Shown: piece by piece, positions 7,181-35,061 of the stretch
Numbering within the stretch: the first letter of the stretch is position 1
How the letters are laid out: every line of letters starts with the position of its first letter
From: a virus
Lineage: Duplodnaviria; Caudoviricetes
DNA length: 50,778 bases
Strand: one strand, 5' to 3'
IMG/VR virus record: IMGVR_UViG_3300036806_000033
Location: 1 to 50,778 of that record
The notes under the pieces: generated by a model
What the model saw: only the letters and a program-made list of their open reading frames with translations
Told to the model about the DNA's origin: nothing
The model's database searches: none
Made by a program: the position numbers and the translations under genes

Positions 7181-7630
7181 CTAACTTATAGATGCAACAA
7201 GTGCATTCAAAACAGTTTGAAGACCTACTGTTTGTGCAGGAGTAAATACCGACATAATACGCGTACCATCAGAATTGAGTTTCTCTGCTTGAATAAAACC
7301 ACCTGTATCCTTAGGAAAGTTAGATATAATCCAATCTATACATGCTTGAGACGCATTAACAACAGATGTTATATCACTGGTTAAAGTACCTGCATAACCA
7401 GGGATGTTAGCAGTTGCATATGTATTTAATCCAACAACATTCTTATATGCATTTAAATTTGTAATAACTCCAGACAACTGATCGAGCATTGAAAAGACAT
7501 AAGCAGTGTTGATGTTATTAGACTGAATAACAATTACAGCTGCAGCTGCTTGTTGTTTAATTCCAGCTGCATAGTTCTGTAATTGAGACAAAACAGCACC
7601 TAAAGATGGTTGTGTAGATGCCGGAAACAT
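7181..7630 (-). CDS. Hypothetical virion-module protein
   Basis: 149-aa ORF tightly packed in the late operon. Confidence 0.7.
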   Translation of the reverse strand: MFPASTQPSLGAVLSQLQNYAAGIKQQAAAAVIVIQSNNINTAYVFSMLDQLSGVITNLNAYKNVVGLNTYATANIPGYAGTLTSDITSVVNASQACIDWIISNFPKDTGGFIQAEKLNSDGTRIMSVFTPAQTVGLQTVLNALVASIS

Positions 7631-7631
7631 T

Positions 7632-7808
7632 TTACTTAACTTCTCTATATGCTTGAATCATCAATTTATGAATCTCTTTAGAATCTGTTATACCTTGTTC
7701 AGAAGCTAATAAAATAGCATCAGACATGGCTTTTTCTCGACGTTGTGAGAGTTCTTTATTCTCCGGCTTCAAAGAAGACGCAGAAACACCTACAGCTTCG
7801 ACTATCAT
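7632..7808 (-). CDS. Small hypothetical protein (58 aa)
   Basis: MIVEAVGVSASSLKPENKELSQRREKAMSDAI...; fills the gap with a TAATG junction. Confidence 0.7.
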   Translation of the reverse strand: MIVEAVGVSASSLKPENKELSQRREKAMSDAILLASEQGITDSKEIHKLMIQAYREVK

Positions 7809-11314: not shown

Positions 11315-12904
11315 ATGGCTACGACAATCACTCTGAAGACTAAGAAGCCCGCCACTGCTAAGGTATCTAACAAGGTAGAGCAACCGGCTATGATCGATAA
11401 GGCATTAGAGAACGCTATTCGTGCGGCATACTCGCAGACATACTATGCTGACCCTGTGCTGCAACAAGGTGATGCGGTCTGCACTCTGTCACCTGAGTAC
11501 ATCACGCAAGTCGTGAACCATGTCAGGGCGCAGAATGCAAACGTTCCTATCACTGCCGCAACGTTCTCCATCAAGGATGGCGCATGGGAACATGAGATCG
11601 CAGGCATTGTGCTTGCGGCTGTGAGTGAGGCGGAGAGCAATCAAGCTAACCAGCAAGATACTTCGCCTGATCTCTCTCCAACCGAGATACGTTCTAGTGC
11701 TGCTGCTGCTGCAATGGTCATGAACAATGACGCTGAAATCAATGACGTGTTGTCGCGTGTTGTCATTAGCGAACACACAAGGCGTACTGCGCCGGCTCTG
11801 CTTGCCTTCAGACTGAAGAATGACTTTGTTCGCTTCGCGGATGACGGCACTCTGCTATGCAACATGATTGAAGGGACGGGACCGGAGTTCGACGGCAATG
11901 CTTATTCCCCTTGGCCGGCAATCGGTACGAAAGAGACCGACAAGGACGGCAAGAAGATCAACAATAACCCAGATATATCGAAGGTTAAGTCTACCGAAAA
12001 CAAGTCAGGGTTTGTCGAAGTCTCTTGGTATTACCAAGCTATCTGTATGTCCACCGAAGGGAAGAAGTTCGCTGCCCTTATCAAGGAATATCATGCGGCT
12101 GCGAATGAGAACCCTTCGGGTAGGTTTGCCGATAAGCACTCGCCTGATTATCTAGGACGTGGTGCCGCATCGAAGGAAGCCATTCGGTGCAAGTCAGCAT
12201 TGCAGGATATGACTAAGGCATTAAAGAAGGCGACCATGATACTCCGTCATATGTGGAGCGTTGACGAAATGGCACCTGAAGGACAGCCGCCTCGTTGCAC
12301 TGCCCGGTTTGACGTTGCTCATACTTGGGACGTGAAAGAGCAATGCTGGAATGATGACGAGACCAAACTGATGGAGTCAGCTGCGCCCATCATCGTCACA
12401 GACAACGTGTCCAGGGAAACCGAACGCTTTGACGTTAACCGTTTCTTGGGAATGGACACATACACGGCAGGCATCAACGGCGGCTCAATGTCGGACCTGC
12501 TAAAGGCCGTGGGCAAGGCAAAGATCAAGAGGACTCCCGGCAGTGGCACAGGACAGACACCACAAAGCCCGATCAACGAAAAGGCCACGGCAATGACGAT
12601 GGATGAAACGTCTACCGCCTTTGCACGTATGGCAACGACAGTCGAGACTACAGCGGCATGGGCCAATTATGAACGCTATCTCTCGACTGCCGATCATGAC
12701 GATGCACTGCAATCGACGTGGCGCATACTGGTTGCGGTGCAAGCCATGTTCCAAACTAAACCCGACTTCCGAGCTAGGATCGTCAAGCTGGAGAAGATGA
12801 AGGCCGAGTCGGTGGACGATATCGCAGGGCTGGGACCGAAGACGGTAGCACCTGCTGCTGGTGGCACACGAGAGAAGTTGATACTTGCTAGCAAGCGTGC
12901 CTAA
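11315..12904 (+). CDS. Large early protein of unknown function (529 aa)
   Basis: AGGAG RBS before ATG 11315, in frame with the ORF called from 11180; own promoter and terminator. Confidence 0.85.
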   Translation: MATTITLKTKKPATAKVSNKVEQPAMIDKALENAIRAAYSQTYYADPVLQQGDAVCTLSPEYITQVVNHVRAQNANVPITAATFSIKDGAWEHEIAGIVLAAVSEAESNQANQQDTSPDLSPTEIRSSAAAAAMVMNNDAEINDVLSRVVISEHTRRTAPALLAFRLKNDFVRFADDGTLLCNMIEGTGPEFDGNAYSPWPAIGTKETDKDGKKINNNPDISKVKSTENKSGFVEVSWYYQAICMSTEGKKFAALIKEYHAAANENPSGRFADKHSPDYLGRGAASKEAIRCKSALQDMTKALKKATMILRHMWSVDEMAPEGQPPRCTARFDVAHTWDVKEQCWNDDETKLMESAAPIIVTDNVSRETERFDVNRFLGMDTYTAGINGGSMSDLLKAVGKAKIKRTPGSGTGQTPQSPINEKATAMTMDETSTAFARMATTVETTAAWANYERYLSTADHDDALQSTWRILVAVQAMFQTKPDFRARIVKLEKMKAESVDDIAGLGPKTVAPAAGGTREKLILASKRA

Positions 12905-23079: not shown

Positions 23080-25062
23080 ATGCGATTAATAATTGACGTT
23101 GAGGCAAACTCTCTTGACAATCCTACTAAGATATGGTGCATTGTAACGAAAGACCTGGACACAGGAGTCGTCGATGTTTATCGCAATCTTACTGAGGATG
23201 CAAACGAGGCTGCTAGGTTCAAAGCCGTCTGGGATCAAAGACCTATTCTTATTGGCCATAATGTACTTGGTTGGGACTTTGATAATCTTGGGCGTTTGCT
23301 TAACCTTAATCTCGACGATATTGATGATCGCACGATTGATACACTGATACTTTCAAAATTGGTGGACTATCCGCGTGATGGCCACAGCATTGAAAGTTAC
23401 GGTGTTGAGTTCGGCTTTGAGAAGTTGGCATTCACCGACTTCTCTAAGCTGAGCGAAGAAATGGTGACCTATTGCACGCGGGACGTTGAAATATCCGAGA
23501 AGATATTTCTGAAGTATCGTAAGGTAATCAACGATCCCCGGTGGAAGCAATCCATACTCACTGAACATCAATTTCAGTGGCGTGCAGTTAACGCTATGAA
23601 GAGGAATGGATTTGCATTTAATACAGAAAAATGTAAAAAACTTCTTGACAAAGTCACAAAAGAGTTAGAAATTCTCGATGAACAAATCAATAAATTTCCA
23701 CCTATCTGGAAACTTCTAAGCATTGTTACACCTAAAGCTACGAAGTTTGGAACTATTGCTCAAAATTCTCTTCCCAAAATTTGGAGAAGCAGAACATGCG
23801 AATTAACAGTTGGTGTACCATTCGAACATGGTGAATGGATCAAATTCAACCCATCATCTGTTAAGCAAGTAGTAGACCTTCTATGGCAGGCTGGTTGGAA
23901 ACCAGAAGATCGCACTAAGACTGCTATTCTCACTGAGCGTGAGTTAGGGAAACTAGAACGCGACAAATCCAAAGACCAGTCTGCCATAGATCTTCTTAAA
24001 AAAAAGCAAGAGAAATTCAAGAAATATGGTTGGAAGATTAATGAAAATAATCTCCATACTTTACCGAATACTGCCCCTGAGGCAGCGAGAACTCTAGCAC
24101 GTAGAATTCTCGTCGAATCCAGACGCCGAACCCTAACGGAATGGCTCAACCTCGTTAAGGAAACAGGACGTATCCACAGTCAGTTCCAAGGGATCGGCGC
24201 CTGGACCCATCGCATGGCTCATCAGAAGCCAAACATGGCGAACATACCGAACCATTTAGATACTCAAAAAAGAGTTCGGTACTTGGGCGCTGAAATGCGG
24301 TCACTGTTTATATCCCCACGAAAAAGGCTGCTCGTCGGTGTAGATGCTGCGGCAATCCAGCTGCGCATCTTCGCCCATTACATCGACGATGCAGCCTTTA
24401 CTAAAGCCCTTGTTGAAGGTAAAAAGGAGAATAAAAGTGACCCACATTCTCTTAACAAAAACACCCTTGGCAGAGTTTGTAGATCAAGAGATGCAGCTAA
24501 GCGGTACATTTTTGCCTTGTTATTGGGAGCGGGATCCGGTAAGCTTGCCGAGATATTGGAATGTTCAGCTGAAGAAGCGGATGCCGCTCTTCAGAACATT
24601 ATGGAGCGATATACCGGGTTCACTTTTCTTAAACAGTCTACAATACCGGCCGATGCCAAGAGAGGGTGGTTCTATGGTCTTGACGGTCGAAAAGTTAGGA
24701 TACCTGGAGACACCATCAGCGAGAGACGGCACCTTGCTATGTCTGGGTATCTACAAAATGGTGAAGCGGTTATCATGAAGATGGCAACTCTTCTTTGGAT
24801 CAAGTATCTCGAAGAAGAGTTTGCTAAACCAGAGTGGAAAGACATAGACCACAACTGGCTTCTAGTGAATTTAGTTCATGATGAATGGCAAACTGAATGT
24901 GACTATTACATGGATGTTGCACTAAAAATTGCGGAACTGCAAGATAAAGCTTTACAAGACGTTGGTAATATGTTACACCTTAAGTGTCCTTTAGCAGGAA
25001 GCTATCGAGATGAGGATCGTAACGATTACACTATCGGCACGAACTGGAAATTAACACACTAG
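23080..25062 (+). CDS. polA: Family A DNA polymerase with 3'-5' exonuclease (T7 gp5-like)
   Basis: ExoI DVEAN, ExoII GHNVLGWD, ExoIII YCTRD; motif A VGVDAAAIQLR; motif B RDAAKRYIFALLLG; motif C VHDEWQ. Confidence 0.96.
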   Translation: MRLIIDVEANSLDNPTKIWCIVTKDLDTGVVDVYRNLTEDANEAARFKAVWDQRPILIGHNVLGWDFDNLGRLLNLNLDDIDDRTIDTLILSKLVDYPRDGHSIESYGVEFGFEKLAFTDFSKLSEEMVTYCTRDVEISEKIFLKYRKVINDPRWKQSILTEHQFQWRAVNAMKRNGFAFNTEKCKKLLDKVTKELEILDEQINKFPPIWKLLSIVTPKATKFGTIAQNSLPKIWRSRTCELTVGVPFEHGEWIKFNPSSVKQVVDLLWQAGWKPEDRTKTAILTERELGKLERDKSKDQSAIDLLKKKQEKFKKYGWKINENNLHTLPNTAPEAARTLARRILVESRRRTLTEWLNLVKETGRIHSQFQGIGAWTHRMAHQKPNMANIPNHLDTQKRVRYLGAEMRSLFISPRKRLLVGVDAAAIQLRIFAHYIDDAAFTKALVEGKKENKSDPHSLNKNTLGRVCRSRDAAKRYIFALLLGAGSGKLAEILECSAEEADAALQNIMERYTGFTFLKQSTIPADAKRGWFYGLDGRKVRIPGDTISERRHLAMSGYLQNGEAVIMKMATLLWIKYLEEEFAKPEWKDIDHNWLLVNLVHDEWQTECDYYMDVALKIAELQDKALQDVGNMLHLKCPLAGSYRDEDRNDYTIGTNWKLTH

Positions 25063-25565: not shown

Positions 25566-25826
25566 ATGGAGTATTATTATAAACTCTATAGGCCAGAATA
25601 TATCACTGTAACAATCAGTGATCCAAAGGAGAGTACCATGAGTAAAACCTACGAGACTGTAAAGTGGCGTGTCGCATATAACGAGTTTGACACGTTCGAA
25701 GAAGCTAAGACTGACGCTGACAAGCGAGCTCTGAAAGATTGGGAAGATGTCCCTGTCTGGAAGACCGTTGGTGTGGCAAGGTCTGCCTTCGCGCCTACCG
25801 CAGTTACCTGGACTGACCTCCAGTAA
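25566..25826 (+). CDS. Hypothetical protein (strong internal start at 25638)
   Basis: AAGGAG RBS before MSKTYETVKW. Confidence 0.7.
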   Translation: MEYYYKLYRPEYITVTISDPKESTMSKTYETVKWRVAYNEFDTFEEAKTDADKRALKDWEDVPVWKTVGVARSAFAPTAVTWTDLQ

Positions 25827-25863
25827 CACCGTGGCTTGTTGGTAAAAGTAACCCTCTGTAAAT

Positions 25864-25901
25864 CGAAAGGGCATTAGCGAAAGTTAGTGCCCTTTCGTTT
25901 T
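25864..25901 (+). terminator. Rho-independent terminator
   Basis: CGAAAGGGCATTAGC-GAAA-GTTAGTGCCCTTTCG followed by TTTT. Confidence 0.85.
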
Positions 25902-25916
25902 CCAAAGGAGGAAGGA

Positions 25917-26126
25917 ATGCACGATGATGTCAGATATTACAAACGAGTCTCAGTCTGTGAAAAGGTGGCCATTCAAAAGATGGTCAGCGCAGGAAGAGGA
26001 AGACGGAGACGTGTCAAGACAGTCTTCAAATGGCAGTGTAGACCATCTATTCGCATGATCAATGAGGGTGAGTACCCAATCATGAATGAAATTCAGAAGA
26101 TCTCATATAAATTGACGATCTTCTAA
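25917..26126 (+). CDS. Small basic protein (69 aa)
   Basis: AAGGAGG RBS before ATG 25917; Arg-rich. Confidence 0.6.
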   Translation: MHDDVRYYKRVSVCEKVAIQKMVSAGRGRRRRVKTVFKWQCRPSIRMINEGEYPIMNEIQKISYKLTIF

Positions 26127-26802
26127 CGAAGTAACCCCGGTAGTCCTGGCAGTATTTGTGTGCTTTTATGCACTGGCCCTGATGACTGGCGCCAGCCTAA
26201 GTCGTCCTAGGCAAAGGAGTGTAGTTGTAGCTGGATGCGCTCTATACGCACAAGGACGCCGGGGTTACACTAATTCAGTTTAGGAACTGCGAAGACTGGT
26301 GAGCATTCAGCCACCGACTAGTGGTTACCTAATCCCGAGAATACCTTCACGACTATGTTAGCCAGATCACGGTCACGGTATCAGCCAGTTGTGATGCCCG
26401 CTGTCCAGTGTTGTCCAATGTAGTGCTGAGTGCGAAGATTTCTCGGCCTACCGAACCCATGGGTACGTATTAAGACCTAGATCGGCACGCGTATGTATGG
26501 CTGAAGTAGGGTGCACTCATCTGAGTGTGATGTAGGGGTGCGATCCCGCCCGTCTTGTATCCCGTGCGGTACGATGGAGGCTAAAAAGTAACTGCATTCG
26601 GGAATAGGAAAGGCCTGCTCTCCGCAGGCTATGGCAAACAGTGAGGACGTGCAGCAGGTGTTCAAAAGACAAGCCAGATAGACGTGAAAGGCGGTGAATG
26701 CCTCTAGTCAATGTGATCCTGGTAACTAGTCTTAGTAATCTTCCTAGATTTTGACAGATACAGGGCCGATTGTGCAGTTAGCCCTGCCCGTTTGGAAACG
26801 GC

Positions 26803-26871
26803 TGTCTTAATCATGCAGGTTCGATCCCTGCCAGTGGTGTGTAACCGCTGTGGCGTAAAAAGTCGGGGACA
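26803..26871 (+). ncRNA. Circularly permuted tRNA-like module (YrlA/Y-RNA-like order: T arm, closed acceptor stem, D-like arm)
   Basis: GCAGG-TTCGATC-CCTGC, then CAGTGGT-gtgta-ACCGCTG, then TGGCGTAA; closed by TGTCTT/GGGACA. Confidence 0.6.
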
Positions 26872-27280
26872 AGTTTGTGGTGATCCAAACACTGGCTAGT
26901 TTGGCCCCCCTAGGCAACCGTAAGGAAGATAGCATCGGCAATAAAAGTTCAAACATGAACAGGAGATCATCCCAGTCGACTGAAAACTGTCCCATGGTGA
27001 ATGGATTACAGAAAGATTGTCGACGACTCACCTTAGTAATGGATGAATGAACAAGACAAGCACGGACAAGTAAGGGTTATCCCTCGGAAATCTCATCTTC
27101 ATGAGATACCTAAGATGCTAAAAGAGCAACAGTCCATACTCGACACGGTGCCCGAAAAGGCCTTTCACCAAGAGGATTTATCCCCACCACATTAAGTGGA
27201 GTGGACTAACGTCCGCTTTAATATTGTGGACATGGATGTGCAGCTTTCATCGGGGCAGGAGACTGCTCAAACCCTGGACA

Positions 27281-27374
27281 CGCGCTAAGGGCTGAAACGA
27301 TGTTAAGTGCTCTCCTCAGTCAGTAGACCTGTTAAAAGGTTAAGGTATTGTAGGTTCGAACCCTACCAGCGCGA
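27281..27374 (+). tRNA. Non-canonical tRNA-like element (possibly Asn-derived), no encoded CCA
   Basis: Acceptor CGCGCT/AGCGCG, T arm GTAGG-TTCGAAC-CCTAC, oversized D arm, GACCT-gttaaa-AGGTT anticodon-like arm. Confidence 0.55.
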
Positions 27375-28272
27375 ATGCTGATCGCTGACTTAGTATGTGA
27401 GATGGCTCGATCTAGCAACATCTAGGGAGCTTGGGTGAAACCAAGTGTCATTCAGTCTGAATAACTGAATGTTGTGGGAGTGATGAACCATCCGTGGCTT
27501 ATGACTGATCTGCTGTAGGATAATGCTCTAGTTAAATGCTTCGTAATTGGACGATGTCATGAACTGGAAAGCAAGCCCTGAAACAAACTTTGGTGTATAA
27601 TAACGTTCCTCAGGTGGAATAGGAAAACCAAAGCAAAAGTACCAATACCCCGTTAACTCCGCAGTGAAGTGAAGAACTAGCTGATGGGGATAAGAGGCTC
27701 CAGTAGCGTAAGTAGTCTGCCAAGAAAGCTGATCCCAATGTACATGATCAGTGACGGTGATGCGTTTGTACCACCCCATCTGCTACGAATAGAGGAGCAG
27801 TATAAAAGGTGTGGGAGCTAAATGTGAGATACCGTGTAGGCACGAAACGTGAAAGATAGGCCCTCCTTTACGGGCTGACTTAACCAAAGGAAGAAAATAA
27901 AGATGCCTGAGATGACATAGGAGCCATTCTAGCGGCTATTCACCTTCATCTTTAGCATAATAAAACTTCCTCGCGACTCCAAAGCACGCCAGATTAGCGT
28001 ACACTAGGAGCTAGAAGCGTGTCAGAAGTATTCAGGCTGGTAGTTTCCCAGTTCTGTCGAAAATGGCATTGGTAGCGAGAACGTTAAGTCTCGCTAAATT
28101 CCTCAAACGGAAGGAGATGAAAATGGGCATCACTCTGGACATGCGAGATGAGATAACTGTTAAACAACCTTGGAGCACGGGTCCGCCTTAAGATGCTGCG
28201 CGCGTAGAACATGCCGCAGCGGGGGAGGAGGCTTAACAGCCACTCCCCCCACATTCATAGGAGACTGTCGAC

Positions 28273-28581
28273 ATGAACCAACCAATCATCATAGTTCCTG
28301 GGGGACAAGGCGGGGGATACAACAATCACCCTCGTCCACCGAGACGAAGGAAGAACAGAGCTGACAAAAAAGCTGACTCTGAAAAAGAAAAGAAAAAAAA
28401 GGAAGCTGAAACTAAAAAACAGTTGCGTTTGCGTATATTTTATGCTATAAGCATTTTTGTTCTCCCACTATTCGGCATTTCTGCCGCATTCGTTCTCCTC
28501 GCCGTTGGATTAGGTGCAGTTAAACTCACAGAGATTTCTGCATATCTCCTACGACTCATAGTTAATCAATCAGCACATTGA
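28273..28581 (+). CDS. Membrane protein with a basic N-terminus
   Basis: AGGAG RBS; K/R-rich stretch followed by a long hydrophobic segment. Confidence 0.7.
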   Translation: MNQPIIIVPGGQGGGYNNHPRPPRRRKNRADKKADSEKEKKKKEAETKKQLRLRIFYAISIFVLPLFGISAAFVLLAVGLGAVKLTEISAYLLRLIVNQSAH

Positions 28582-29578: not shown

Positions 29579-30130
29579 ATGGGGCAACTTCGCAATTCTT
29601 TCGAGAAAAAGACACTCGAACATTTAGAACAAAAATCTATCCATGTTGAATACGAGACAGAAAAGTTTGATTATGTCGTCTACGGCACTTACTGGTCAGA
29701 CTTTAAAATTCACCGAGTTCTTCAAGAACCATTATATGTTGAAACCAAAGGTTACCTAAGACCTGAAGATAAAATCAAACTTAGGGCAGTTAAGATCACT
29801 CATCCGGAATTAGACCTGCGTATACTGTTTTATGCCTACAAAAAGAAAGATACCCGTTGGGCAGACAAGTATCAGTTTAAATACGCGATCGGTACAATTC
29901 CAGATGAATGGTTAAAGGATGCAGAACATGTCACTCAAAATGGTGATTGCAGTCCGTCAAGACATTCAAATGAACAAAGGCAAGACAGCTGCACAAGTAG
30001 CCCACGCCGCAGTCGGTTGCCTCGCAGACGTAAAAACAAGACATCCAATCGTAGATCGTTGGTTATCCACAGGAGAAGCAAAGATCGTGGTCAAAGCAAC
30101 AGACTTGCAACAAATATACGATCTGGCTGA
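29579..30130 (+). CDS. T7 endonuclease I-like Holliday junction resolvase with a C-terminal run-on into pth2
   Basis: RNSFE...YE...Y.SDF...YVETKG...D..K...HPELDLR..F...WA.K..F.YA...IP.EWL. Confidence 0.88.
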   Translation: MGQLRNSFEKKTLEHLEQKSIHVEYETEKFDYVVYGTYWSDFKIHRVLQEPLYVETKGYLRPEDKIKLRAVKITHPELDLRILFYAYKKKDTRWADKYQFKYAIGTIPDEWLKDAEHVTQNGDCSPSRHSNEQRQDSCTSSPRRSRLPRRRKNKTSNRRSLVIHRRSKDRGQSNRLATNIRSG

Positions 30131-30278
30131 TCTTTGTCAGGCTCAAGGTTTAATGTACAACACTGTAACAGATAGTGGTAAAACTGTCTTTCATCAACCA
30201 ACAGTAACGTGTATCGCAATTGGTCCTGATACCGTTGAACAAGTTGACTTAGTGACCAAAGGACTCAAACTCCTATGA
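29928..30278 (+). CDS. pth2: Peptidyl-tRNA hydrolase, PTH2 family
   Basis: KMVIAVR.D..M.KGK.AAQ.AHA ... KIVVK ... DSGKT...PTVTCIAIGP...VD.VT.GLKLL; AAGGA RBS before 29928. Confidence 0.93.
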   Translation: MSLKMVIAVRQDIQMNKGKTAAQVAHAAVGCLADVKTRHPIVDRWLSTGEAKIVVKATDLQQIYDLADLCQAQGLMYNTVTDSGKTVFHQPTVTCIAIGPDTVEQVDLVTKGLKLL

Positions 30279-32540: not shown

Positions 32541-34741
32541 TACTTACCCTCTTCATATGCTTTCTTAATACGAGCTTTAGCTGCAGCAATATCTTCACCA
32601 GGCTGAAGCGTGACAGGTTTCGCACTTGTAGACTTCTCAACGGCACCTAACATCTCAGCTGGGATACCAGAGAAACCTTCAAAATTGAAGTTAAGTTCTC
32701 TAAGCTTTTGTAAGGTATAAACCGTTGAAGAATGTCCATCTTTCTTAGCTATATAATTAAGAGAATCTAATCCAGTATTAACCTGATCAATAACTCTTTT
32801 TACAGCTGGAGGAACGTCTTTAAAAGTAGTTGTGCCTGCCTTAGGTTTAACATGAAAATGACCTTCCTTGTCATCCCAACCAAAATCTAAATCTTTAAAA
32901 TATTTATTCTCAGTAAATTGATCTAGCTGTTTAAGTTGACCAGTAAATAATATATCTCCATGTTCATGTTCAACATATGTCTTATACATATTCCATGTTT
33001 CAGGACCAAGACGTTTCATCTCATCAGCATTAGCATCTTTAGTCATACGCTTAAAGATTGCCATACGTCCTGGCTTATATTGTAATACTCCATTACGATC
33101 ACGTTCATAACTGTCGTTAGGAAAGTTCTTTAAGAAACCTTGGTTAGCTGCGTCAAAGAATGATTTAGCAACATTACGCTTTTGATTATCATCTCTTAAA
33201 CCACCATCTTTAGCAGGCTTACTAATTAAATCTACTTTTTCAACAAGACTTCTAGCTGCCTGAGGATTCTTACCATAATCTATTAAGACTTTAGCTGCAT
33301 CATTAGCAGGAGTTCCTTTAGTGACCATTCCTACTTCACGATTCTTATCCCAGGCTTGCAATGCTTCAGATACATCTGGATGATTTGCTTCATATAACTT
33401 CTGTCCCCATTCCGGACTTATCTTAGCAGCTGCTCCAAGATTAATCATGTGAGGACCTAAATCTTTATCATCTAACATGGATTTAGTGGCTGCTTGAACC
33501 ATAGCATTATGTTGAGCAGGTATATAAGAAGCTAATCCAAAATCTTTATTTTCTACTGCTTGAATTACACGATCAACAGCCCCTAATGCAGTTTGAATCT
33601 GTGCTCGTCCTTTAGCTGCTCCATCTTCTCCACCGGCTCCAAGTAATGTAGCTGTAGTCTTACCACTATTTTTTTCAAGAGGTCTAAACAACTCTTTTTC
33701 CATAGCTGCTTCTTGCTGATCTCTGAGCAAATGAAGAGTCTGTTTAAGTTTCTCAACCTCTAAAGGATTAGTAGCAGCAGCACCACCTGCTTGAATCTCT
33801 TGAACACGTGCATTTATCTGCTCCAGATTCTTGTATCCTGCTTTGTCATACATGGTTTGAAAACCACCATTGACAACATTAGAAGTATAATCTGCCCAAG
33901 ATTTACCAGCTGCATCTTTAGTAAATTTATTACTAGCATCAAGCTGTTCAACACTAAGCTTTAAACCATCCTTAGCCGACTCATAACGTCTGACTGCTCT
34001 TTCAAGAACAGGAATAGCTGTTCTATCTCCAGCATGTAAACGATCTACTAAAGTATCAATACCTGGAACATCTGAATGAGAATGCGCATAACTAATAGAA
34101 TTCTTTAAGTCTTCGTCTTTACCAGCATTAGCTGATAAGAAATATTGTTGAAGAGCTTGCATTTTAGCGTTAGCAGTATTACCAAAACCTGCTCTAGCAA
34201 ATTCATGGTCAATATAATCAACATGATCTGGAAATCTAGCACGTAATGCTTTAGCTTGTCTGTCTACTTCGGCTGTTAATAGAACACTATTAATTTTAGT
34301 ATCCAACTTTGCTTGAGATAATTGTCCAGCAATTTGTGGAACAGTTCTAAGATCAGTCGGAAGAGTCTTCTTATCTACACCAGGTTGTAGAAGTTCTATA
34401 CCAGCATTAGGAGCATTAATAGAAGTTTGAAGTTCTTTATCTCCTATAGTCTGATTATAAAAGTTCTCATATGCAGCTGTAGCTTGATCTCTAGCTTTTT
34501 CAGCCAATTTTATTTCATTCTCACCTTCAAGACCAGGAGAATTCTCAATCTGTTGTCTAGTCTGAAACTCTTGAACCTTACCAATGTCCTTAACCATCTC
34601 ACCAGCATGAGCTAATCCTTGACCTACTCCAGTCAAAGCTGTGCCTATAGCCTTATTACCTTCCACAGGTGATATAGGTCGAGAATAATTCCGAAAGTCT
34701 TCTTCCTGAACTTGTTGTGGATTTGGGTTAAATACGTTCAA
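32540..34741 (-). CDS. Internal virion (ejection) protein
   Basis: 733-aa A/Q/K-rich helical protein in the internal-protein position. Confidence 0.7.
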   Translation of the reverse strand: MNVFNPNPQQVQEEDFRNYSRPISPVEGNKAIGTALTGVGQGLAHAGEMVKDIGKVQEFQTRQQIENSPGLEGENEIKLAEKARDQATAAYENFYNQTIGDKELQTSINAPNAGIELLQPGVDKKTLPTDLRTVPQIAGQLSQAKLDTKINSVLLTAEVDRQAKALRARFPDHVDYIDHEFARAGFGNTANAKMQALQQYFLSANAGKDEDLKNSISYAHSHSDVPGIDTLVDRLHAGDRTAIPVLERAVRRYESAKDGLKLSVEQLDASNKFTKDAAGKSWADYTSNVVNGGFQTMYDKAGYKNLEQINARVQEIQAGGAAATNPLEVEKLKQTLHLLRDQQEAAMEKELFRPLEKNSGKTTATLLGAGGEDGAAKGRAQIQTALGAVDRVIQAVENKDFGLASYIPAQHNAMVQAATKSMLDDKDLGPHMINLGAAAKISPEWGQKLYEANHPDVSEALQAWDKNREVGMVTKGTPANDAAKVLIDYGKNPQAARSLVEKVDLISKPAKDGGLRDDNQKRNVAKSFFDAANQGFLKNFPNDSYERDRNGVLQYKPGRMAIFKRMTKDANADEMKRLGPETWNMYKTYVEHEHGDILFTGQLKQLDQFTENKYFKDLDFGWDDKEGHFHVKPKAGTTTFKDVPPAVKRVIDQVNTGLDSLNYIAKKDGHSSTVYTLQKLRELNFNFEGFSGIPAEMLGAVEKSTSAKPVTLQPGEDIAAAKARIKKAYEEGK

Positions 34742-35061
34742 TTTAATTCACCTTTTACATACTGTAAAGCTCGACTTATTCCTTCTTCATTGTCACCTAA
34801 CATTCCAAGACCTATGTTACAATTCTTACATAACAATCCACGAACTTTATCTGTTTCATGATCATGATCTATATGTAAATGTTTTTGATCCAAACTTAAA
34901 AAGAAAACACCACATATCGCACACTGACTATTCTGTTTATCTAAAAGATTATAAAATTCTTCTTTAGTTAAACTATATGTATTAAAAACAGTTTTCCATT
35001 TACGCTGTTCTTTATTTTTCAAATACCAATTTGCCAAATCTTTTTTATTTTTATAAGCCAT
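34738..35061 (-). CDS. Endonuclease VII-family His-Me homing endonuclease
   Basis: Q...CAIC...HIDHDH.T.KVRGLLC..CN..LG; AT-rich insert between virion genes. Confidence 0.92.
   Translation of the reverse strand: MAYKNKKDLANWYLKNKEQRKWKTVFNTYSLTKEEFYNLLDKQNSQCAICGVFFLSLDQKHLHIDHDHETDKVRGLLCKNCNIGLGMLGDNEEGISRALQYVKGELN

Follow-up and report, generated by a model that had tools for sequence, protein, structure and literature searches.

A plus-strand locus punctuated by tRNA mimics, probably a multi-domain non-coding RNA locus, in a soil podophage

What a phage encodes in two kilobases that hold hardly any ORF is the question raised by the gap at 26127-28272 in an uncultured soil phage. The window, that is, the whole stretch of DNA that we analysed (50,778 nt), is a complete genome of 50.8 kb, and the gap is its largest ORF-poor stretch; at a cut-off of 100 aa, the longest ORF-free stretch of the genome is 25875-28272. 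The locus lies in the replication arm of a lytic-type podophage. The longest + strand ORF within 26127-28272 was 57 aa, and no ORF in this interval was conserved except a 22-codon leader ORF at the 3' end. Stop-codon recoding was ruled out, as TAA, TAG and TGA were all dense across the six frames of the gap. In the alignment with the close relative L002, 29 of 40 indels were not multiples of three. Together, the short ORFs, the stops in six frames and the non-triplet indels bore out the original prediction that the stretch contains no credible gene. The results also showed a G+C of 0.45-0.50 and no direct repeats, iterons or CRISPR in the locus. The repeat search recovered an inverted repeat (I1) at 25853-25908 on the + strand, a G+C hairpin followed by a T run, which is a candidate terminator upstream of the small gene preceding the locus; a weak Rfam match, BjrC68, aligned it as its terminal hairpin. 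A scan for sigma-70-type promoters found 4 sites, fewer than the mean of 5.8 in shuffles, and terminator sites were no more numerous than in shuffles, with neither a promoter nor a terminator bounding the locus and no repeated phage promoter motif.

We then compared the locus with those of related phages, whose polymerases (pol) are 49-77% identical. The relatives keep the order pol, SSB-like gene, gap, exonuclease and endonuclease I, and the ORF-free stretch has a median of 1130 nt across 83 distinct loci; in a more distant group (L081-L088) it is just 96-489 nt. This marker polymerase was encoded by more than 150 IMG/VR contigs and at least 300 metagenome stretches, and among the matches listed in the metagenome scan none exceeded 59% pol identity. 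A DNA similarity search against 50,697 phage records gave no match, and a 20-mer of domain B (26277-26750) searched in IMG/VR matched solely the contig of L002. Conserved blocks of the gap were up to 100% identical, while the pol genes of the same phages were 76% identical in DNA. The large domains A, B and D were seen in three lineages only (the window, L002 and L050), and one hairpin of this set was also present in L034 and L118. Strain variants among the DNA contigs were few, lay in domains A and D, and were too few for use; no RNA run was listed as containing the sequence.

The most widespread element of the gap is a tRNA-mimic module, of which the window carries two putative copies on the + strand. 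Each is modelled as a T arm stacked directly on a loop-sealed acceptor-like stem, to which the first copy adds a D-like arm. In mimic 1 (26811-26872), the T arm (26815-26831) is followed by a 7-bp acceptor-like hairpin with a 5-nt loop (26832-26850) and then by a degenerate D-like arm; the hairpin, CAGUGGU/ACCGCUG in the window, is formed in L002 by two other strands that are likewise complementary. Mimic 2 (27346-27390) consists of a T arm (27350-27366) and a closed hairpin, CAGCG...CGCUG, without a D arm. The T-loop sequence of the mimics is canonical. Because the D-like arm of mimic 1, in our reading of the alignment, is without the GG of the tRNA D loop, its mimicry of the tRNA elbow may be incomplete. 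We do not claim a closing stem for mimic 1 (TGTCTT with GGGACA), as its equivalent was not found by eye in L002.

A covariance model of the module, R1, scored mimic 1 at 54.4 bits, mimic 1 being one of its seed sequences, and matched 27346-27404 (mimic 2) at 17.6 bits (E 0.0019 in 1.1 Mb). At E<=1, R1 gave 97 matches from 83 sources, with 95 on the + strand; the 38 matches with E<1e-4 were all on the + strand, downstream of pol and, where the locus includes that gene, upstream of the exonuclease. The module thus recurs at the same place, between pol and the exonuclease, in dozens of related soil phages, with one to three copies per locus in many of them. Across the family, the T stem was 100% paired and the acceptor-like stem 78% paired, and in 9 of 10 pairs both sides had changed; covariation was 0.605, compared with 0.149 in shuffles (0/500) and at most 0.12 when the partners were slid. 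These results confirm a permuted tRNA-like unit, originally placed at about 26803-26871, in the form of a mimic with the arm order of YrlA RNAs. The cloverleaf read by eye at 27281-27374 did not hold: its acceptor pairing and "D arm", by our reading of the alignment, are not kept in L002, where the model aligned 12476-12508 as a T arm and a CAGGC/GCCUG hairpin.

Domain A (26131-26268, + strand), which begins 4 nt after a stop codon, is predicted to fold into a multibranch RNA with an 11-bp closing stem. Its single-sequence folding z-score was -4.40, and none of 200 shuffles was as stable. Comparison with L002 revealed 5 compensatory pairs, 4 of them in the closing stem, and the covariance model of this domain, R2, matched L050:7067-7212 (26 bits, E 6e-4 in 1.2 Mb). 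In the three phages, 16 of 48 pairs were changed on both sides, compared with 5.6 in shuffles (0/500), and 97% of the alignment cells were paired, in three-sequence alignments that are fitted to the models and so favour pairing. These findings support the closed fold proposed for domain A. G-U pairs on the + strand, previously noted by eye, were likewise found, in 16 of 136 cells of this alignment (counted from the pair table).

The strand and pairing data also bear on whether the stretch is a decaying tRNA gene array, a functionless sequence relic or an element that acts as DNA, for instance a replication origin. T arms in several relatives lie 63-119 nt apart, which is the spacing of tRNA genes, genuine tRNA genes occupy this gap in a few relatives (L018, L062), and the locus sits within a replication module. 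However, the strand 3' of each T arm finds its partner in the sequence that follows it and not some 70 nt upstream on the 5' side, and the closed hairpin after the T arm covaries, which is unexpected for a relic, as is block identity exceeding that of pol. The strand bias of R1 also counts against this reading; moreover, G-U pairing on the + strand would turn into A-C mismatches on the opposite strand or in a DNA cruciform, and the locus has no iterons and is not AT-rich. We therefore consider a relic or DNA element very improbable.

The remaining large domains gave more uneven results. Domain B (26277-26750, + strand) contains conserved blocks and predicted long-range helices, of which the core hairpins at 26530-26615 are the supported part. 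RNAalifold on the window and L002 gave 111 pairs, 18 of them compensatory, with two-sequence statistics that do not discriminate; nhmmer matched L050:7384-7457 to 26538-26609 within the core (E 0.0075), and the three-way fold of the core had 25 pairs, 6 of them compensatory and several broken in L050. Domain C (26880-27280, + strand), the spacer between the two mimics, is a candidate structure whose block at 27045-27162 shares 79% identity with L002; by our reading of the alignment, its 50-aa ORF meets a stop after 3 codons in L002, with a 1-nt indel in addition. In domain D (27405-28100, + strand), one hairpin of a sub-domain at 27545-27735 bears the conserved loop string GAAGUGAnGRACUAG (27666-27680), a motif found in 5 distinct lineages among 169 loci. 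The model of this sub-domain, R3, matched L050:8166-8338 (48.7 bits, E 4.6e-9) and had a local match in L034; 16 of 39 pairs were changed on both sides, compared with 6.7 in shuffles (0/500), and helix 2 has no letters in L050.

Single-sequence folding z-scores were weaker outside domain A: -2.25 for B, -2.14 for 26751-27400 and -1.41 for D. Two-sequence alifold windows in domain C scored z -1.2 to -2.9, not above the coding control. Since the pol coding control scored equally negative values (mean -2.9, down to -7.5), the column-shuffle alifold z-scores carry little weight and were dropped as evidence for B, C and D. The sequence comparisons support domain A and part of D, at the least, as conserved folded domains; B and C are less certain and weakly supported as RNA structure. 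The original prediction that nearly all of the stretch folds into closed domains holds for A, the B core and the D sub-domain; for the rest, closure was overstated.

To place the locus among known RNAs, we searched it with Rfam 15. No family matched the window at gathering score, GOLLD, ROOL, tRNA and tmRNA included, and at E<=10 the interval 25800-28400 gave just three matches, all weak and unrelated; the claim of novelty, as far as Rfam 15 reaches, stands. On the loci of eight relatives, the only matches at gathering score were 3 true tRNAs upstream of pol. ARAGORN found neither a tRNA nor a tmRNA in the window; among 69 relatives' loci scanned, it called a tRNA between pol and the exonuclease in 3 (L018, L053 and L062) and made no call at the R1 module sites. 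A tRNA identity was rejected on these negative searches and on the lack of a cloverleaf with free acceptor ends and an anticodon arm. A tmRNA, including the permuted two-piece form, was rejected because the acceptor loops, of 2-6 nt in most modules, show no CCA and no conserved tag ORF was seen.

The closest known RNA is YrlA (Y RNA-like A, RF02553; PMC4201824). As described there, YrlA shares with mimic 1 the order of T arm, loop-closed acceptor stem and D arm as well as a canonical T loop, the 7-bp acceptor-like stem matches the Mycobacterium smegmatis form cut by RNase P, and YrlA RNAs likewise occur in phages. The same arm order runs through the 38 family matches of R1 with E<1e-4. The YrlA model aligned to L078:10859-10926 in a relative, covering the enclosing stem, T, AS and D (positions 23-89), at a score far below threshold (29.4 bits compared with a cut-off of 69, E 0.026). 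These likenesses would fit mimics that act as the effector halves of Y-RNA-like RNPs, recruiting host Ro60/Rsr or an unrecognised RNA-binding protein, with the large domains as scaffold. However, YrlA had no match at E<=10 in 25800-28400, and a TROVE/Ro60 domain (PF05731) was found in 0 of 6 genomes (the window genome and five complete or near-complete genomes of relatives), while positive controls were detected. The Ro-binding motif GNCGAAN0-1G was absent from 26101-28300, in which a single GNCGAA without the closing G lies at 28056, distant from both mimics. A Pfam scan of 40 window ORFs, a set that leaves out about 10 long ORFs, including one of 1736 aa, found neither DUF7873 nor another RNA-binding family. 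Furthermore, YrlA as described is an RNA of 100-200 nt built on a stem that binds Ro, whereas the phage modules are embedded in a 2-kb locus, with up to three per locus, and mimic 2 has the T arm and acceptor-like stem without a D arm. We regard a Y-RNA-like RNP as unlikely.

Alternatively, the modules could act as decoys or sponges that sequester host factors recognising the acceptor/T-arm half of a tRNA (for example modification enzymes, nucleotidyltransferase toxins or tRNA-targeting defence nucleases), and would then protect host or phage translation during infection. The mimics retain the acceptor/T minihelix and have lost the anticodon arm, the modules recur in many relatives, and a peptidyl-tRNA hydrolase (PTH2, Pfam 1.5e-34) is encoded 1.6 kb downstream of the locus in the window. 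Against this, tblastn found PTH2 in just 2 of 89 sequences (the window and L058), indicating that PTH2 does not travel with the RNA. In addition, anticodon nucleases would not recognise RNAs without an anticodon arm, and the locus showed no link to any defence system. We give such decoys little credence.

The 3' end of the gap is of another kind. Its last ~170 nt, which extend beyond the end originally given (28105), carry a 22-codon leader ORF (28123-28191, + strand) with a Shine-Dalgarno site and the end Gly-Pro-Pro-TAA, identical in length and end in L002 and L050. An SD-preceded ORF of 12-40 aa ending Pro-Pro-stop was present on the + strand of 71 of the 83 distinct loci; the reverse complement gave 3, and eight other doubled residues at the end, in place of Pro-Pro, gave 0-6. 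TAA was the stop in 69 of the 71, and the ends included QPP (29), RPP (28) and GPP (2, with the window). Between this ORF and the ribosome-binding site of the next gene lie two conserved hairpins (28195-28252, + strand; ~95% identity to L002), with an equivalent G-rich/C-rich stem in L050 by our reading. The first gene 3' of the locus (28273-28581, + strand) encodes a 102-aa protein with a basic N-terminus, a hydrophobic C-terminus and no Pfam family; L050 encodes a similar 97-aa ORF, and the exonuclease gene comes next. RAPP-like arrest peptides, as described in PMC10951233 and PMC12992588, are likewise encoded by a short upstream ORF ending (R/Q/G)-Pro-Pro ahead of a gene whose small product is probably membrane-bound, a likeness that concerns the leader ORF only; unlike those described, the phage leader is phage-encoded, very short (12-40 aa) and has TAA directly after Pro-Pro. 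These last ~170 nt are a predicted translated leader peptide with hairpins and not ncRNA, and they probably tune expression of the next operon.

A leader at the 3' end raises the alternative that the whole stretch is one long structured 5' leader, a cis-regulatory mRNA of the downstream operon, and not a set of free-standing RNAs. The locus is co-oriented and contiguous with the leader ORF and the next genes, and the scan found no terminator-like site between domain D and the leader ORF. However, two kilobases far exceeds known bacterial leaders, and the tRNA mimics suggest processing. In L002, a 52-aa SD-preceded ORF lies between domains A and B, indicating that the domains are separable modules. 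We consider a single long leader distinctly improbable.

Taken together, 26127-28100 is, with a fair degree of probability, a + strand multi-domain ncRNA locus punctuated by tRNA mimics that are probably handled by host tRNA-processing enzymes. The locus would be transcribed either together with the small gene before it or after that gene. The minihelices of 7 bp and 5 bp would be recognised by host tRNA enzymes, namely RNase P and possibly those for 3' trimming and CCA addition; cleavage at the mimics would release separate stable RNAs and set the 5' end of the downstream message. Recognition by RNase P is suggested by analogy with one mycobacterial precedent, the YrlA of M. smegmatis, which has a 7-bp "acceptor stem", is cleaved by RNase P and acquires CCA in vivo, as described by Chen et al. 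2014 (PMC4201824). The original multi-RNA proposal is retained as to its non-coding nature, + strand structure, position outside Rfam 15 and permuted first unit; the cloverleaf of the second unit and the closure of every domain are not.

GOLLD and ROOL, as described by Kretsch et al. (10.1101/2024.12.08.627333), are likewise large, phage-encoded and tRNA-associated RNAs with functions unknown, and this association resembles the domains separated by tRNA-like units here. The likeness extends to size and setting only: the linked units are non-decoding mimics and not tRNAs, and neither covariance model matched at gathering score or at E<=10. A multi-module tRNA-mimic locus is not described in the literature searched, on which the list of YrlA phages in the supplement of Chen et al. 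2014 may bear. A bolder reading, which we advance tentatively and rate as unlikely, is that of giant phage RNA(s) of a new class, in which ornate domains A, B and D are strung by sealed tRNA-elbow modules that dock on the host tRNA machinery (RNase P, the ribosome or the CCA enzyme). Coupled to the Pro-Pro-stop arrest peptide directly downstream, these would form an RNA device sensing or rewiring host translation.

Other viruses make non-decoding tRNA-like RNAs from gene-free clusters, co-transcribing them and leaving their release to tRNA-processing enzymes of the host: stable RNA species 1 and 2, part of the T4 tRNA cluster, and the TMERs (tRNA-like/miRNA units) of murine gammaherpesvirus 68. 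Those RNAs have free acceptor ends and the normal tRNA order, whereas the phage mimics have a sealed acceptor and a permuted order, with no sequence relation between them. To our knowledge, few large structured RNAs have been described from phages, and none of them has been assigned a function; this locus is a further, clade-wide example. In it, the kind of tRNA-mimic module found in Ro60-bound Y RNAs is used again without Ro60, in multiple copies and beside uncatalogued domains. The Pro-Pro-stop leader is a candidate phage arrest peptide that is directly testable. If the modules are RNase P substrates, they would represent tRNA punctuation of a bacterial virus's non-coding transcript.

The gap runs from a small gene, whose stop codon is at 26126, to a 102-aa gene starting at 28273; at a 100-aa cut-off, no ORF-free stretch in the genome is longer. 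Its longest + strand ORF is 57 aa, all three types of stop codon are frequent in all six frames, and, relative to L002, the sole close relative, 29 of 40 indels have lengths not divisible by three, in agreement with the original prediction that it holds no credible gene. That it could not be assigned to a known family was likewise borne out: across the entire window, Rfam 15 gave 0 matches at gathering score, and within the gap just three weak, unrelated matches at E ≤ 10. ARAGORN found neither tRNA nor tmRNA in the window, and nothing resembling this locus turned up among the papers searched.

We searched IMG/VR with the window polymerase (pol) alone, which found 9 loci, and with a polymerase alignment, which found 155 loci, 80 of which were kept. 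The same alignment found at least 309 stretches in metagenomes, of which 80 were kept. Among the relatives listed, the gap aligned at the DNA level with L002 only (77% pol identity); the others among the matches listed had pol identities of ≤59%. The gene order of pol, SSB-like gene, gap, exonuclease and endonuclease I was constant throughout the 49–77% pol-identity group. Gap size, measured between pol and exonuclease as the longest + strand run free of 70-aa ORFs, had a median of 1130 nt in 83 distinct loci, with the window's being the largest, and was 96–489 nt in the 7/8 loci measurable of a distant group (L081–L088, 40–45% pol identity). The locus is real and conserved. In L002, an SD-preceded 52-aa ORF (L002:11274-11432), absent from the window, is inserted between domains A and B, indicating that the domains are separable modules.

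The window record is complete, with 50,778 bases and direct terminal repeats of 127 bases. Pfam searches identified a T7-type terminase nuclease domain, a podophage fibre protein, a Toprim/DnaB primase-helicase and, in the replication arm, endonuclease I. Besides the latter, an endonuclease VII gene (34738-35061, - strand, 6.6e-21) lies among the structural genes. A PTH2-type peptidyl-tRNA hydrolase (29919-30278, Pfam 1.5e-34) is encoded in a different frame from the endonuclease I ORF, whose tail it overlaps; tblastn over 89 sequences found it in only two, the window's own and L058, and it is therefore unlinked to the RNA locus. For the family A DNA polymerase, identity to cultured-phage polymerases is at most 37.5%, with Roseobacter and Lentibacter podophages matching best, and the DNA runs containing the window sequence carry a soil metagenome label.

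In most loci, a canonical T-arm pattern (5-bp stem, loop TTCRANN) has matches downstream of pol on the + strand; matches are almost absent from the opposite strand. A hairpin lies directly 3' of each T arm, followed in many loci by TGGCG and a D-arm-like sequence. We built a covariance model, R1, on 13 T-arm/hairpin units. The results showed 97 matches in 83 sources at E ≤ 1, 95 of them on the + strand, and 18 further matches at E ≤ 0.001 in the 80 kept metagenome loci, a set that includes several duplicates of IMG/VR contigs. In a 40-source set, all 38 matches at E < 1e-4 lay downstream of pol and, wherever an exonuclease gene was present, upstream of it. In the alignment of these 38 matches, which was fitted to the model and so favours pairing, the T stem was 100% and the acceptor-like stem 78% paired, 9/10 pairs had changes on both sides, and the covariation score was 0.605 versus 0.149 for shuffles (0/500) and ≤0.12 with partners slid.

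In the window, the first predicted tRNA-like unit (26803-26871) was recovered as mimic 1 (26811-26872, + strand, 54.4 bits, a seed sequence of R1), in which a 7-bp stem abuts the 5-bp T stem directly, as in tRNA. The predicted cloverleaf at 27281-27374 did not survive, as our reading of the alignment showed that its required acceptor stem and "D arm" are not kept in L002. Mimic 2 (27346-27404, + strand, 17.6 bits, E 0.0019) instead consists of a T arm and closed hairpin without a D arm, a reading that also fits L002, with two pairs exchanged. Some relatives (L013:10076-10256, L014:9911-10086, L028:5820-6003 and L078:10662-10867) carry three T arms 63–119 nt apart within the gap, a tandem array of tRNA-mimic units denser than the window's. 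Among 69 relatives' loci scanned, ARAGORN called no tRNA at R1 module sites, and called tRNAs between pol and exonuclease in three: Ile-GAU (L018:10425-10496), a 96-nt Lys-CUU (L062:11341-11436) and a 4-base anticodon call (L053:10065-10160), indicating that in a few relatives the gap doubles as a tRNA island.

We compared the module with YrlA, which Chen et al. (2014, PMC4201824) describe as a succession of the stem-loops T, AS and D, with a GNCGAAN0-1G motif, lying no more than about 4 kb from Ro60 and on that gene's strand; in M. smegmatis YrlA, a 7-bp stem permits RNase P cleavage and then CCA addition. The phage module shares the T-AS-D order of that description, whereas no GNCGAAN0-1G motif occurs in the locus, and the TROVE domain is absent from 6/6 genomes (the window's and relatives'). 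The Rfam YrlA model gave no match in the window gap at E ≤ 10; its positions 23–89 aligned to L078:10859-10926 with 29.4 bits, below the cut-off of 69. The shared order, together with the sub-threshold score and the absent TROVE domain and motif, indicates a YrlA-like module in a locus that is itself not a YrlA gene; by analogy, the module would work like YrlA's tRNA-like half.

The original prediction also held that nearly all of the gap folds into closed domains. Among the four stretches folded as single sequences, domain A (26131-26268) alone folded clearly better than shuffles (z -4.40, shuffles as stable 0/200), and the claim proved weaker for B (26277-26750; z -2.25, 2/100), 26751-27400 (z -2.14, 1/20) and D (27375-28105; z -1.41, 1/20). 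Domain A is about 85% identical to L002, with four consecutive closing-stem pairs and one inner-hairpin pair exchanged. A model of these two sequences, R2, was run over 1.2 Mb and picked up one more full-length match, L050:7067-7212 (26 bits, E 6e-4), at the very start of that locus's 1.85-kb gap. In the three sequences, 97% of cells were paired, and 16/48 pairs changed on both sides versus 5.6 in shuffles (0/500) and ≤5 with partners slid.

The D sub-domain model R3 (27545-27735) matched L050:8166-8338 with 48.7 bits (E 4.6e-9), and in L034 it matched a single hairpin. Here 16/39 pairs changed on both sides versus 6.7 in shuffles (0/500); helix 2 is missing from L050, which limits its support to two close phages. 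Across 169 loci, five distinct lineages carried the loop string GAAGUGAnGRACUAG. The order in L050 was that of the window: A, B-core (nhmmer E 0.0075), mimic 1 (7610-7668), T arm (7993), D match and leader ORF. Domain A, part of D and both mimics are demonstrably structured.

For domain B, RNAalifold on the window and L002 predicted 111 pairs, 18 of them compensatory; with L050 included, 6/25 core pairs were compensatory and several were broken. Sliding alifold z-scores for D (window and L002) reached -7.15, and a coding control, the pol alignment under the identical procedure, gave a mean of -2.9 and a lowest value of -7.5. Because the control scored as low, these scores were dropped as structure evidence. 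Two-sequence windows at z about -7 lay in the pol gene at ~23880-24580: either column shuffling produces an artefact on coding sequence, or the mRNA is truly structured there.

G-U pairs, which the original prediction placed on the + strand, occupied 16/136 cells of the domain A alignment (counted from the pair table) and would be A-C on the opposite strand. Together with the R1 strand bias (95/97) and the canonical T-loop sequence, they point to + strand RNA, and away from both DNA hairpins and a transcript of the minus strand. No direct evidence of transcription was found among the sequencing runs searched for the window sequence. Most likely, the structured RNAs would be co-transcribed as a set, and host tRNA enzymes would cut the transcript apart at the tRNA-mimic minihelices.

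At the 3' end, a 22-codon leader ORF (28123-28191, + strand), SD-preceded and ending Pro-Pro-TAA, was the only SD-preceded small ORF common to the window, L002 and L050. It is followed by two conserved hairpins and then the next gene's ribosome-binding site, just upstream of the genes for a small hydrophobic-tailed protein and the exonuclease. We surveyed SD-preceded ORFs of 12–40 aa from pol to exonuclease in the 83 distinct loci. The results showed a Pro-Pro-stop ORF on the + strand in 71/83 loci and on the reverse complement in 3. For eight other residues doubled at the end, the corresponding counts were 0–6 loci. QPP (29) and RPP (28) made up most of the ends, with GPP also occurring, and the stop was TAA in 69/71. 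The ORF resembles a leader that arrests termination or elongation, and the nearest kind described is that of the C-terminal RAPP-like arrest peptides (PMC10951233 and PMC12992588). The leader ORF is a candidate ribosome-arrest peptide conserved across the phage clade.
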